Virus record (IMG/VR): IMGVR_UViG_3300022413_000001
Location: 1-58,954 of that record
Reading direction: 5' to 3' (one strand)
From: a virus
Taxonomy: Duplodnaviria; Caudoviricetes
DNA length: 58,954 bases
Shown here: piece by piece, positions 4,636-33,460 of the stretch
Numbering within the stretch: position 1 is the stretch's first letter
Layout: every line of letters starts with the position of its first letter
Translations under genes and position numbers: made by a program
Notes under the pieces: model-generated
Told to the model about the DNA's origin: nothing
The model's database searches: none
Seen by the model: the letters and a program-made list of their open reading frames with translations, nothing else

Positions 4636-5052
4636 ATGGCAATCAACAGGCAGCGCTACACTGCTAAACAGGTCATACAGGCTTTAAAGGTCACACGTGG
4701 CATGGTCTATATGGCGGCGGAACGCTTGGGGTGTGATCCGAAAACAGTCTACAACTATATTGACCGATACCCCTCTGTCAAAGAAGCGCTGGACGATACG
4801 ACAGGGCGCTCACTCGACATGAGTGAGACGATGCTCATGCAGCAGATCATGAAGGGCAATATCGTTGCCATCAAATACCACTTGAGCACCAAGGGCAAGC
4901 ATCGGGGATATACGGCAGAAATCGAAGTGGGCGTTACGCACCGTATGGATGACGAGATCTCTCAAGCACGCGAAGCCCTGAGTGATATCCTCGCGGTAAC
5001 AGGAGAGCGACTCAAAAATGCCGGCCTTAATGGAGATGGCCAAGCTTACTGA
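4636..5052 (+). CDS. terS: Terminase small subunit
   Basis: N-terminal HTH (AAERLGCDPKTVYNY) and AIKYHL..KGK.RGY; lies directly upstream of TerL. Confidence 0.8.
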   Translation: MAINRQRYTAKQVIQALKVTRGMVYMAAERLGCDPKTVYNYIDRYPSVKEALDDTTGRSLDMSETMLMQQIMKGNIVAIKYHLSTKGKHRGYTAEIEVGVTHRMDDEISQAREALSDILAVTGERLKNAGLNGDGQAY

Positions 5053-6361
5053 TCTTTCAGCAGCGGAAGAATTCTCCATGCTGGACGAGAGGGAGCGAAA
5101 CCGCGTTCTGGATAAGATGCCCGATAAGCAGATCTATGCCCTGATGCATGACTGGGCGTTTTGGGCACGCCCGGAGCAGTTGTTGCCGGAGCATGATGAC
5201 TGGGATGTGATGTTCTGGTGCGCGGGCAGGGGGAGTGGGAAAACGAGACCAGCAGCGGAGACTGTTAACCAATGGGCTGAGAACAAAAATTGGCACCTCT
5301 CGCTTGTGGGAGAGACGGCAGCAGAAGTCAGAGATGTCATGATCGAGGGACCCAGTGGACTGATTGCGACAGCGAAGCCCTGGAACCCTGCTGTGTACGA
5401 ACCCTCGAAACGGCGTGTGACATGGCCTGCTACGGGGACTTGGGCAACCACATACAGCGGGGACAAGCCGGATCAGTTGCGTGGACCTAATTCGAATGGG
5501 TGCTGGGTCGACGAGTTGGCCAAATTTCGGTATCCGGAAAAAGTCTGGGAAAACCTGGAAATGCTTAACCGTGTTGGGCGCCACCCACGGTTTTTAATTT
5601 CCTCTACGCCTCGCCCGATCCCAATTATAAAAGAAAAAATTGAAGAGTCCTTAAAGCCCAATTCAACGACTATCGTTCGCACCTGGAATACCTACCGAAA
5701 CCTGGCAAACCTGGCTGAATCGACCATTCAGCGGTTGCTGAACCGGTACGAAGGAACCCGGATTGGGCGCCAGGAATTGCATGCGGAGCTGCTCAGTGAT
5801 ACGCCGGGGGCACTGTGGACACTGTCAGGGATTGACGAGCACCGGGTTACCCAGCATAATGCCTTGAAAATCATTGTCGTAGGTGTAGATCCTCCCATAA
5901 CTGAGGGGGGTGAATGCGGAATCATAGTGCAAGGACTGGCTCCAAACGACCACATTTACACACTGGACGATATGAGCATGAGTGGCAAGCCGCACGAATG
6001 GGGAGCCCAAGTCATTGCGGCTTATCACAAGTGGGGAGCCAATTATATCGCACCTGAGATCAATCAGGGCGGAGATATGGTGTCGTCAGTTTTGCATACA
6101 ATCGATCCCGGTGTACCGATCACTCCAGTTTGGGCGTCAAGAGGAAAGTGGTTACGGGCAGAGCCCATATCGAGTTTTCACGAAAAGGGCCGTATGCATC
6201 ATGTCGGCACTTTTGCTGCTCTCGAAGATGAGCAAAGCACCTACGTACCCGGCAATCCCAGCCCTAACAGATTGGATGCGTATGTTCATGCGGCAACTAA
6301 ATTACTCTCTTACACGGAATTTGACGCCGGCAGTACGAGAGCGGGTGTGTGGGGAGAATGA
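5018..6361 (+). CDS. terL: Terminase large subunit
   Basis: Walker A AGRGSGKT, Walker B WVDE, STP coupling motif, nuclease GVDP ... SPNRLDA. Confidence 0.95.
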   Translation: MPALMEMAKLTDLSAAEEFSMLDERERNRVLDKMPDKQIYALMHDWAFWARPEQLLPEHDDWDVMFWCAGRGSGKTRPAAETVNQWAENKNWHLSLVGETAAEVRDVMIEGPSGLIATAKPWNPAVYEPSKRRVTWPATGTWATTYSGDKPDQLRGPNSNGCWVDELAKFRYPEKVWENLEMLNRVGRHPRFLISSTPRPIPIIKEKIEESLKPNSTTIVRTWNTYRNLANLAESTIQRLLNRYEGTRIGRQELHAELLSDTPGALWTLSGIDEHRVTQHNALKIIVVGVDPPITEGGECGIIVQGLAPNDHIYTLDDMSMSGKPHEWGAQVIAAYHKWGANYIAPEINQGGDMVSSVLHTIDPGVPITPVWASRGKWLRAEPISSFHEKGRMHHVGTFAALEDEQSTYVPGNPSPNRLDAYVHAATKLLSYTEFDAGSTRAGVWGE

Positions 6362-6364
6362 CCG

Positions 6365-7771
6365 ATGAGCGAAGTTTCAAACGGGCATGATGTAGCGGAT
6401 GTCCTTCGGACAGCCCAATCGATTATCCAATCCCGTGCGGCGCTATCCGCGCACCTTGGAAAGGCATTTGGAGGGGTACGGGATTACTATGATATTTTGG
6501 GGTACAAACTCAACCTTCAACCCCTAGACTGGATTGCAAAATACGACCGTCAGGATATTGCGAGCCGCATCGTAAATGCCTACCCGGATGATACGTGGCG
6601 CATCTCCCCTTTGGTGTGGGAAAACCAGGATGAAATTGACACTGAATTTGAAGTGGCATGGACACGTCTGGTTGAAAGGCTGCGGATCTATCACTATTTC
6701 CACCGGTTGGACCGGTTGGCTGGGCTTGGCCGTTATGCCATTATGATTATGGGCGTTGCGGACGGGAAATCCCTTGCTGATCCCATTAACCGGACTGTAG
6801 CTCCTGCCTTGCAGTATCTGTCTTTGTACAGCGAAGAACACGCGGACATCCAGGCGATTGATGAAAATACGAATTCGCCCAGATTCGGACTCCCCCTTAC
6901 CTATAAGGTTGACTTATCAAGGTCGACAACAGTCGTGGGATCCACGCAATCTACCCGCGAGAATAAACAAAAAGACAACCAAATTGTGCATTTCGAACGA
7001 GTTATTCATTTTGCGGATGGTGTGCTGGAAGATGATGTCTATGGAACGCCCAGACTTCGGCCTGTTTACAACCTGTTGGATGACTTGCAAAAAGTGGTCG
7101 GTGGATCAGCCGAAGTATTTTGGCGCAACGCCTCACGGGATCTGATTGCAGCGGTGAGGGATGGGGCGCACCTAACGCCTGAAAGTTCGACTGCGATCAG
7201 CGAACATATTGATGAGTTTATCCACGGACTGCGCCGAGTGCTTCGGGTAGAGGGGGTAGACATCAATGCCTTGCCAGCAGAGATTGCGTCTCCACGGGAT
7301 ACGGTGGATGTAATCATGGATATGGTTTCAGGCACAACGGGCATTCCCAAACGCATCCTGCTGGGCTCAGAACGAGGAGAGTTGGCGAGTTCACAAGATG
7401 AGGGGAATTGGGTCTCCCGCATAGAGCAGCGGCAAATACAAGTCATCAACGATGTTATTCTGCGCAACTTTATTGATAGGATGATCTCAATCCGCATACT
7501 CCCAACCCCTCCCGATGGGTATACAATCGAATGGCCACCGCTAATAACTGAGGATCCCAAGGAGCGGACAGAGAGAATAGAACGCTTGGCGAACGCCTTG
7601 GCTACGATTGCAGGTCCAGGGCAGGTTTTGAGTGTATTCCCACTTCCTGAAGTGCGGGAAACGGTGCTGGAATGGGATGCAGAGAGTCCTTTTGAGACGG
7701 ACGAATCCCTCGCAGCCATCGAGGAAGAGGATGACGATGATTTCGAGGTGGACGACGATGTTGCTGAATAA
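6365..7771 (+). CDS. Portal protein (DUF1073-like)
   Basis: Follows TerL; ERVIHF, GIPKRILLGSE.G.LAS..D..NW motifs. Confidence 0.88.
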   Translation: MSEVSNGHDVADVLRTAQSIIQSRAALSAHLGKAFGGVRDYYDILGYKLNLQPLDWIAKYDRQDIASRIVNAYPDDTWRISPLVWENQDEIDTEFEVAWTRLVERLRIYHYFHRLDRLAGLGRYAIMIMGVADGKSLADPINRTVAPALQYLSLYSEEHADIQAIDENTNSPRFGLPLTYKVDLSRSTTVVGSTQSTRENKQKDNQIVHFERVIHFADGVLEDDVYGTPRLRPVYNLLDDLQKVVGGSAEVFWRNASRDLIAAVRDGAHLTPESSTAISEHIDEFIHGLRRVLRVEGVDINALPAEIASPRDTVDVIMDMVSGTTGIPKRILLGSERGELASSQDEGNWVSRIEQRQIQVINDVILRNFIDRMISIRILPTPPDGYTIEWPPLITEDPKERTERIERLANALATIAGPGQVLSVFPLPEVRETVLEWDAESPFETDESLAAIEEEDDDDFEVDDDVAE

Positions 7772-7788: not shown

Positions 7789-8643
7789 ATGCCATCTGCT
7801 GATCCGTCACACACAGCCACACTTAGGCGCCGATACAGCGGCGCGATGAATCGTCGTTTCCGTACACTCGCAAGTGATGTGCGCAAGTCCATTGTGGACA
7901 ATGACGGATTGGGGTTTCGTGCGAATACGCCCGCACCCCATCGCGCCTTTGACTTTCCCAGGTCAGCAGAGAAGGTAGACGCATTCATTCGGTGGTTGCA
8001 ACGCGAGGTTGACCGGGGCATCCTCGAAGTCGTCTTGCGCAATGGTTCTGAAATCGTACTACATCGTGAGTGGCAGAATCGGTTCATCCGTAACGCCTAT
8101 ATTCGCGCGGTGACGGATGCTGAGACATCCTTAAAGCGCCAAGGTGCACTGATAGCACCACTCGATTTCACGATCGGACTTGAAGCCGGGGTGCATATTG
8201 AAACGCTGGAGTTGATGTATACGCGGGTATTTGAGGGATTACGCGGAATAACGGGGTCAATGAGTGGCCAGCTTTCACAGATTTTGTCGCAAGGCTTAAT
8301 TGATGGAGTAGGGCCGCGCGTGCTTGCCAAGCGCATCACGGACCAGATTGCGAGTATTTCACGCACGCGAGCCATGGTCATCGCAAGAACGGAGATCATC
8401 AATACCTATGCGGAGGGCACACTCAATATTTTTGAGCAAAACGGCGTCTCAGGGGTAACGGCAGAGGTTGAGTTTTTAACGGCAAAAGATAATCGGGTCT
8501 GTCAACGATGCCGTTTTCTGAACGGCAAAGTTTTTACTATCCAACAGGCTAGAGGCATCATTACTGTCCACCCACGTTGACGTTGCGTTTGGCTCGCGGT
8601 CGTGAGCAGCGAAGGAATCGGAGGCTCATCACAAGCGGCATGA
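7789..8643 (+). CDS. MuF / SPP1 gp7-like head morphogenesis protein, extended through the in-frame UGA at 8578-8580 (candidate selenoprotein, 284 aa)
   Basis: RA..IARTE and D.RVC..C motifs; terminal HPR-[TGA]-RC matches the conserved HPxCRC; the next in-frame stop (8641-8643) overlaps the next gene's ATG. Confidence 0.8.
8581..8611 (+). promoter_or_regulatory. Bacterial SECIS-like hairpin
   Basis: 11 nt after the UGA: GCTCGC-GGTC-GTGAGC (8592-8607); possible lower pairing CGTT/AGCG. Confidence 0.65.
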
Positions 8644-8819
8644 TGGATAAGCAGCGCTACCCTCTAACACTGCCCGAAGTCCGTTGCGCGTACTGTGGCG
8701 TATTGTTCCTCAAGGGAGGATATTGGGGGGAATACAAATGCAGATCCTGCAAAAAGATCAATGTGCAAAGTGTTCAGTTGCAAAAAGATGTAGACACAGA
8801 TTATAATTCGGAGAGCTGA
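8640..8819 (+). CDS. Com-family C4 zinc-finger RNA-binding regulator
   Basis: EVRCAYCG.LF ... KCRSCKKIN, the Mu Com-like pattern; ATG overlaps the true MuF stop (ATGA). Confidence 0.7.
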   Translation: MMDKQRYPLTLPEVRCAYCGVLFLKGGYWGEYKCRSCKKINVQSVQLQKDVDTDYNSES

Positions 8820-8858
8820 CGCAATTTTAAAACCAATCGTTTATTTTTTTTCGCTCTG

Positions 8859-8899
8859 AGCCCTGAGAGGTCCGTAGGGAACCTCTCAGGGCTTTTTTT
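8859..8899 (+). terminator. Intrinsic terminator / regulatory hairpin upstream of the capsid genes
   Basis: 13 bp stem AGCCCTGAGAGGT/ACCTCTCAGGGCT followed by a T run. Confidence 0.75.
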
Positions 8900-32516: not shown

Positions 32517-32738
32517 TCAGAACAACTTGATGTGATTTGACTCAAGTCGCTGCTTTTGGCACCGCGTGTGCGGCAACCGATGATAATCGATTCTCCAAAA
32601 TATTCTCCAAAATCTAGGCTCGAATTCGATCCCACTGAGCCCCTCGCGCGTGACGAGGGTATCGTATTCCTCGGTTGTCTCCAGCCTCCAGCCCTCGCCG
32701 TCAATCCAGACATCAGGTTTTTGATTGTCTCGTTTCAT
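32517..32738 (-). CDS. Hypothetical protein
   Basis: ATGA-coupled to the methylase stop. Confidence 0.4.
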   Translation of the reverse strand: MKRDNQKPDVWIDGEGWRLETTEEYDTLVTREGLSGIEFEPRFWRIFWRIDYHRLPHTRCQKQRLESNHIKLF

Positions 32739-33460
32739 GCGTCCTGCGCTCCGTGCGTGTTCAACCATTGCGTACCTACATATTGCGTGTAGGCTGGGGG
32801 AATGGCCTGACAAAGTTCCACTCCTGTCATCCAATCTATTTGCATCGCAATCCGCGTAACCGCAACACCAGGACTCATCTTGTTTTCCCAGTATTCAGGA
32901 TGCACAAAGTCTTTTGACGATGTGCGTTTAGGCAAAGGTTTGTATCCACTATGGACAATATCCCTGGATCTCGACCCCAATTTCCTGCCTCTGCGTATTG
33001 AATGAACATGCGGCGGGTGATCAGGTGCAAACCATAGAAAATTGGATTCGAAATAACGATGCCGGTACATCGGCAAATCAAACATACCCCCGCACAACCA
33101 ATTCGCGTCCAACTTCGCTCCCATTACATTCTCTATCACATAATGCCTACCCGTTGCCTGCAACAAGATACGCAATGGGTCAATGAGCAATGGATACTCT
33201 TTTTCTGCAAGCGAGGGAAGGTGTCTCATGACACTGTATCCCTGGCAAGGGGGGCTGGCGTGAATGAAGTCAAATCCCCTCCCATGCTCAGCCAAAAACT
33301 CCAGCGCATCGCCCTGCACGAATTCAAACGGGTAGCGCGGTTGTGGAGCGATATCCACGCCCGTAATGTTCTCAAACCCAGCCCAGCAATAACCCATGGC
33401 AGCGCCACCTGCTCAAGCGCCGCAGAATAAATCGAGTAATCTCAATTTATGCGTTGGCAT
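32735..33460 (-). CDS. C5 DNA cytosine methyltransferase with an in-frame TGA in motif I (pseudogene or recoded)
   Basis: AGGAGG RBS, then MPTHKLRLLDLFCGA*AGGAAMG; also SPPCQ, IENV and RHRYFE motifs; TGA at 33413-33415. Confidence 0.75.

Follow-up and report, generated by a model that had tools for sequence, protein, structure and literature searches.

Bacterial selenoprotein genes that are read by SelB, with Escherichia coli fdhF as their prototype, have an in-frame UGA that aligns to a Cys of homologues, a patchy alternation of selenocysteine (Sec) and Cys across the family, and an in-frame downstream hairpin with a small loop starting with G. In E. coli fdhF, the apical loop of this hairpin reads GGUC. 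The passages of PMC8659212 that deal with the element describe the fdhF selenocysteine insertion sequence (SECIS) as a stem-loop 11 nucleotides (nt) past the UGA, with a bulged U17 and with G23 and U24 in the loop. Among viruses, the known selenoproteins listed in the pertinent sections of PMC8310308 are two captured poxvirus glutathione peroxidases, those of molluscum contagiosum virus and fowlpox virus. No phage selenoprotein was found in the literature searched, which included the main texts of the BSepDB paper, a 2026 review and the deep-Sep paper, with supplementary family lists lying outside the search. Here we analyzed the IMG/VR record IMGVR_UViG_3300022413_000001 (positions 1 to 58,954; hereafter the window, meaning the whole stretch of DNA), a complete Caudoviricetes phage genome that is 58,954 bases long and ends in direct terminal repeats, in which a MuF/SPP1 gp7-like head-morphogenesis gene carries an in-frame TGA at 8578-8580. 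We consider this UGA a probable SelB-dependent codon at which the host machinery would insert Sec, and put the probability of this reading at roughly 70%.

The open reading frame (ORF) at 7789..8580 ends with VHPR followed by the TGA, with 263 codons (7789..8577, plus strand) before it. Past the TGA at 8578-8580 (plus strand), the frame remains open as RCVWLAVVSSEGIGGSSQAA (8581..8643, plus strand; 20 codons and a stop) until a second TGA at 8641-8643. As had been noted from the letters, this read-through stop overlaps the ATG (8640-8642) of a 59-residue ORF as ATGA. An alignment with 30 homologues placed the in-frame TGA at C264, the first Cys of the conserved HPxCRC motif, which bears out the position assigned to it by the sequence-only reading. 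C264 is nearly invariant (90% or more) in this alignment, and C238, C241, H261 and C266 are likewise conserved, including the upstream Cys pair (C238, C241) to which that reading had pointed. The closest relatives, P0003 (73%) and P0004 (71%), carry Cys at the TGA column. Furthermore, the extension in the window retains R-C-x-W-L, and its terminal AA is also the ending of the Cys homologues P0007-P0010, P0012 and P0016.

In common with Mu F/SPP1 gp7 proteins (PF04233), the gene stands after terminase and portal genes and its product has the Pfam match, the CxxC and the HPxCRC; unlike theirs, its first Cys codon of CRC is TGA. With 53.5 bits, the Phage_Mu_F match (PF04233) of the read-through product exceeds the gathering score of 29.6 (E = 4.7e-14); it covers residues 164-267 and positions 5-110 of the 112 in the profile, and the score without read-through was 49 bits. 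The gene adjoins the 3' side of the portal gene (6365-7771; PF06381, 119 bits), which is itself preceded by the terminase gene of the head module (5018-6361), giving the order terminase, portal, MuF. A profile search of the whole phage genome returned this one PF04233 match, by which a second intact MuF copy was rejected.

The MuF locus resembles the SelB-read bacterial genes in each of the features named above, with its hairpin loop 17 nt from the UGA, and the arrangement qualifies under the comparative criteria used for calling bacterial selenoprotein genes. It differs from them in that MuF is encoded by a phage without sel genes and would depend wholly on the host, in that it is a virion-assembly protein rather than a redox enzyme, and in that its Sec would lie in a CxxC...HxxCxC cluster resembling a metal site. 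With the poxvirus glutathione peroxidases, it would share a viral UGA read as Sec by the host, and with the fowlpox enzyme a SECIS within the coding region (both as given in the relevant sections of PMC8310308). The poxvirus proteins are redox enzymes that viruses of eukaryotes have captured from cells, and their SECIS elements are eukaryotic, whereas MuF would be a phage's own structural gene and its hairpin of the bacterial type.

An error of sequencing or assembly, or a host in which every TGA is decoded as Trp or Gly, could also produce such an interrupted gene. The sequencing runs that contain the phage DNA are sediment metagenomes, with no RNA run listed among them, and their low depth (2.6 to 6.6) favors an artefact; runs X2 and X4 have no coverage of the TGA at 8578-8580. 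However, positions 8550-8836 are spanned by a 287-nt contig from another sediment run (X3, record 7), which has 0 differences to the window. Because this contig has identical letters, the TGA is not an assembly slip, and a sequencing error was rejected on the same ground; the base stands as it had first been read. A TGA of the same kind in a related lineage (L069) was present in three assemblies, which also speaks against an artefact. As for an altered code, TGA stops 13 of the 35 non-overlapping ORFs of at least 150 codons in the window, the terminase, portal and capsid genes are intact under translation table 11, no other structural gene is interrupted, and the genome did not present itself as one with TGA reassigned throughout (tables 4 and 25). 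A tRNA scan together with Rfam revealed no tRNA in the phage genome, and no Rfam family reached its gathering score anywhere in the window. Given that TGA is an ordinary stop in this phage and that the phage has no tRNA, both genome-wide recoding and a phage suppressor tRNA were rejected. We therefore regard an artefact or an alternative code as very improbable.

The sequence-only reading predicted that relatives would alternate between TGA and Cys at this codon, and this proved correct. In the 80 best IMG/VR relatives, the C264 column was occupied by TGC (42), TGT (36), an intein (1, L056) and TGA (1, L069), and the 16,240 codons that precede this column contained 0 stops. Scanning IMG/VR for the pattern H-x-x-TGA-R-C, we obtained 32 matches, of which three fall in MuF genes, namely those of L083 (the L069 contig again), L105 and L112. 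When the TGA was moved to the second Cys, the same scan gave 23 matches with no MuF gene among them. A second pattern for the first Cys returned 31 matches with five MuF contigs, L177 and L198 being new, and its control with the TGA at the second Cys had 18 matches and again no MuF gene. With a longer pattern, the L069-type gene was recovered once more from a genome collection as L136, in a metagenome-assembled genome (MAG) of the Deltaproteobacteria, while the Joint Genome Institute (JGI) metagenomes yielded already known contigs only. Little was added by a profile search of a word-indexed protein collection (27 proteins), and a viral-contig search with the single MuF protein found no relative. 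Taken together, the TGA was read at the DNA level in five lineages, namely the window, L069/L105/L136, L112, L177 and L198.

Database proteins extend this distribution. We compiled 187 proteins, which include the 150 best representatives out of roughly 6,700 homologues; 166 of the 187 carry the full motif. Three of them (the window's own protein, P0011 and P0047) end one residue before the C264 Cys, and none of the 187 ends before the second Cys. P0196 and P0197, variants of P0011, stop at the same point, as do P0189/P0199 (96% identical) and P0194 (65%) of the L177 subfamily. The proteins stopping exactly before the C264 Cys thus fall into the groups P0011/P0196/P0197, P0047, P0189/P0199 and P0194, and the stop is kept across sequence variants on several contigs (P0197 versus P0011; P0189/P0199 and P0194 versus L177). 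Altogether, a stop at the C264 column occurs in about eight lineages.

The history of the stop was traced on a FastTree phylogeny of 117 rows, 10 of them with the stop, each row being cut before the C264 column. This tree left out P0001, P0002, P0196, P0198 and P0199, along with any protein whose length fell outside 200-420 residues and any row that lacked the motif without being truncated at the C264 column. The 10 stop rows require 7 state changes, and well-supported branches force at least 6. The tree, the stop counts and the controls at the second Cys thus argue for repeated independent change at a single codon; the same substitution has arisen or reverted many times, at this codon only.

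Coding continues beyond the stop in relatives as well. In L177, the frame is open for 96 codons past the TGA, and these align over their whole length with a C-terminal extension that is conserved in the Cys homologues P0188, P0190-P0193 and P0195. L069 shares with the window the overlap between the read-through stop and the start codon that follows. The case for Sec rests mainly on the position of the codon and on the coding downstream of it.

These results bear directly on true termination, in which a nonsense mutation at a mutable TGY codon would leave either a truncated protein that is tolerated or a defective pseudogene in a decaying phage. The step from TGY to TGA is a single transversion, one homologue (P0032) shows that the Cys can be lost, the extension in the window is short, and a further in-frame TGA at a C5 methyltransferase gene of the phage may hint at decay. 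Yet the phage is complete and has no MuF gene besides the interrupted one, and the TGA is identical in a second run. Random decay would not confine the stop to one column through at least 6-7 independent changes, with 0 at the second Cys and 0 in the 16,240 other codons, nor would it conserve the 96 downstream codons of L177 or let the stop persist in relatives that are 96% and 65% identical, as well as in variants from several contigs. We consider true termination quite unlikely.

Turning to the hairpin, a 6-base-pair (bp) stem with a GGUC loop had been described exactly 11 nt past the UGA, and its coordinates are as claimed. The SECIS-like element occupies 8588..8613 (plus strand): the spacer from the UGA comprises 8581-8591 (11 nt), the upper stem 8592-8597/8602-8607 has six pairs including one G-U pair and encloses the loop GGUC (8598-8601), and a lower stem of 4 bp (8588-8591/8610-8613) follows across a 2-nt bulge on the 3' side (AG, 8608-8609). 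The 11-nt spacer and the GU in the apical loop are shared with the fdhF SECIS, and to that extent the proposed likeness held.

As a test of the hairpins, we coded the bacterial SECIS (bSECIS) consensus model of Zhang and Gladyshev as it is restated in the legend of Fig. 2 of PMC13188914. The window hairpin passed this loose model, with a 4-nt loop starting with G (GGUC), 6 bp, 17 nt from UGA to loop and -11.7 kcal/mol. L069 passed as well (loop CGGG, 7 bp, 18 nt, -10.9 kcal/mol), and L177 did so strongly (loop GUUA, 7 bp, 18 nt, minimum free energy (MFE) over 45 nt of -23 kcal/mol); the L177 hairpin shares the architecture of lower stem and bulge with that of the window. L112 passed only via an isoenergetic alternative with a shifted bulge (-8.6 kcal/mol, 17 nt). 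Of the five TGA lineages, four (window, L069, L177 and L112) therefore have the loop at a distance of 17-18 nt from the UGA, which largely agrees with the expectation that relatives with TGA would also have the hairpin. At this spacing, one of 70 distinct Cys homologues passed, and MuF was the only one to do so among the 13 TGA-ending ORFs of the window. Among synonymous recodings, a passing hairpin at 17-18 nt arose in 16/150 for L069, 17/150 for L112 and 72/150 for L177. The joint chance of passing hairpins across the window, L069, L112 and L177 is about 0.001. The common spacing is suggestive of SECIS function, and the window hairpin is by its sequence consistent with a SECIS.

Any Sec insertion would have to come from the host. 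The MAG that holds the L069-type phage contig (2.4 Mb in many contigs) encodes SelB (365.8 bits versus a cut-off of 242) and SelA (647.2 bits versus a cut-off of 268). Among 401 genomes of its phylum, nine had a MuF match at E <= 1e-10, and a TGA inside the match was found in this MAG only. These Sec genes give partial support for the L069-type lineage and none for the window itself. For the window phage we make no host call, because its terminase relatives in named phages are distant and spread over many phyla. In the L069-type MAG (G001), the sole Rfam tRNA-Sec match over threshold lies on contig C6 (L150:155-247, 52.6 bits). This 93-nt tRNA has a long variable arm and the anticodon GCA (Cys), not UCA; we take it to resemble the tRNA-Sec-like tRNA-Cys described in Deltaproteobacteria.

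With respect to the site itself, an AlphaFold2 model of MuF (predicted local distance difference test, pLDDT, 82.7) showed a bundle of helices and, after it, a small module in which CxxC begins a short helix and HPxCxC stands before a strand. It is reasonable to infer a metal or redox cluster of the Cys4 or Cys3His type. The PDB yielded no sequence relative (best E = 0.81) and no fold match at E <= 0.001. Because of this, the zinc-binding site put forward by the sequence-only reading did not advance beyond a deduction from the motif and the AlphaFold2 secondary structure. Inteins are inserted at the C264 Cys in 11 of the 187 proteins (P0042, P0043, P0044, P0064, P0078, P0090, P0092, P0097, P0111, P0112 and P0161), and an intein in the same position (HPx-C-[intein]) was located at L056:3001-4050. 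Since inteins have repeatedly inserted there, C264 is a conserved and important residue, and it is a hotspot for two kinds of recoding or insertion. Among the motif variants, P0071 reads HPNCRRCC.

A number of results count against Sec insertion, and many of them concern the hairpin. The window hairpin alone is not significant, and only the joint result is notable: its region folds no better than shuffled sequences (z = 0.6), its 45-nt energy was reached in 214/1000 synonymous recodings, and 37/150 recodings gave a passing hairpin at 17-18 nt. The bSECIS model is loose, as it passed 15 of the 70 Cys homologues at any allowed spacing and 4 of the 13 TGA-ending ORFs of the window. The MFE over 45 nt was non-discriminating, with the Cys relative L001 folding at -14.2. 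The upper stem 8592-8597/8602-8607 is continuous and has no bulged U on its 5' side; in this respect the likeness to fdhF failed, and the element is not a strict fdhF-type SECIS. Near the UGA, Rfam returned nothing at E <= 10 save two chance matches, and no SECIS match. Folded jointly, the four hairpins gave a weak consensus (-1.59 kcal/mol, with L069 out of register in MAFFT); we treat them as separate lineage-specific elements and not as one homologous RNA. L198 has the TGA but no hairpin (MFE -3.9), so that the expectation of hairpins in all TGA relatives did not hold for this lineage. Its MuF gene lies on the minus strand, with the TGA at 6284 of the reverse complement, and reads HYG*RCVCLPVRKDK* (asterisks denote stops) with an AT-rich tail; L198 may represent an atypical SECIS or else a genuine nonsense allele.

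Other adverse points concern the protein and the host. The extension of the window gene comprises 20 codons only, and for P0011, P0047, P0189 and P0194 the stop was deduced from the protein ends. Considering that P0032 has Gly in place of the first Cys (HPRGRC), the C264 Cys is not indispensable everywhere, and Sec at a presumably structural Cys would have no obvious catalytic rationale. Profile searches of the phage genome gave no match to SelA, SelB or SelD, in line with the earlier remark that the phage has no sel genes, and its terminase relatives in named phages, which infect many phyla, are all less than 60% identical. In the L069-type MAG, we found no SelD over its cut-off, no tRNA with the UCA anticodon of tRNA-Sec and no formate dehydrogenase with an in-frame TGA. 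Moreover, contig C20 has phage genes along its entire length, which leaves binning as the only link between the phage and this MAG.

Several of these points would be accommodated by a leaky read-through that does not involve SelB, in which a near-cognate tRNA (Trp, Cys or Arg) decodes the UGA and yields mostly the 263-residue product with little of full length. The UGA of the window gene is followed by C, which is a weak termination context, and leaky read-through of this sort is known in other phage genes. The frame is open and conserved past the UGA, as such leakage would allow, and it would need neither a significant hairpin in the window, nor any hairpin in L198, nor a Sec machinery, which for the host of the window phage is not demonstrable. 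It does not explain, however, why the UGA of about eight lineages coincides with a nearly invariant Cys, whereas the neighboring Cys and all other positions are spared. Trp or Arg at the C264 column is found in no aligned homologue, and the hairpins at 17-18 nt in four of five lineages match the geometry of SelB. We therefore hold leaky read-through to be unlikely and retain SelB-dependent insertion of Sec as the preferred reading.

Under SelB-dependent insertion, the full product would be a MuF/SPP1-gp7-type protein of 284 residues with Sec in place of the first Cys of HPxCxC. During late expression in a Sec-decoding host, the host SelB and Sec-tRNA(Sec) would bind the hairpin 11 nt past the UGA and deliver Sec to the ribosome, upon which the last 20 codons would be translated up to the TGA that overlaps the next start. 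Without recoding, the ribosomes would release a product of 263 residues, in which the probable metal-binding or redox site lacks its CxC half. The ATGA overlap further suggests that read-through ribosomes may be translationally coupled to the 59-residue ORF. We infer both the dependence on SelB and the identity of the inserted residue, as well as a function of the site in zinc binding or redox chemistry and a coupling to the ORF that follows, from the arrangement described here.

If Sec is inserted, the host range and productivity of the phage would be tied to a patchy host trait and a trace element, and a non-enzyme family and a probable metal-site Sec would be added to the bacterial selenoproteome. 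Gene callers would systematically truncate such MuF proteins, with the database proteins P0002, P0011, P0047, P0189 and P0194 ending at the UGA codon. A wider consequence, which we regard as doubtful, is that head assembly in this and in scattered other MuF phages of anoxic sediments might be conditional on the Sec machinery of the host and on selenium supply. Sec-inserting ribosomes alone would then complete the CxC and reach the ATGA of the zinc-finger ORF, and Sec decoding would act on virions as a gate set by host range and selenium status.

The 59-residue ORF downstream of MuF (8640..8819, plus strand) has the pattern CxxC...CxxC and matched no Pfam family at E <= 0.01. Between it and the next head gene (8908 onward), a perfect long inverted repeat followed by a T-run lies at 8851-8891 of the window; the terminator scan did not list it, probably owing to its 9-nt loop. 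Elsewhere in the genome, the extra in-frame TGA mentioned above (33413-33415, minus strand; context 33395-33440) closely precedes the start codon (ATG) of the ORF for the C5 methyltransferase, which occupies 32735-33397, likewise on the minus strand. There, the upstream frame LLDLFCGA*AGGAAMGY consists of motif I plus two additional codons, the stop included.
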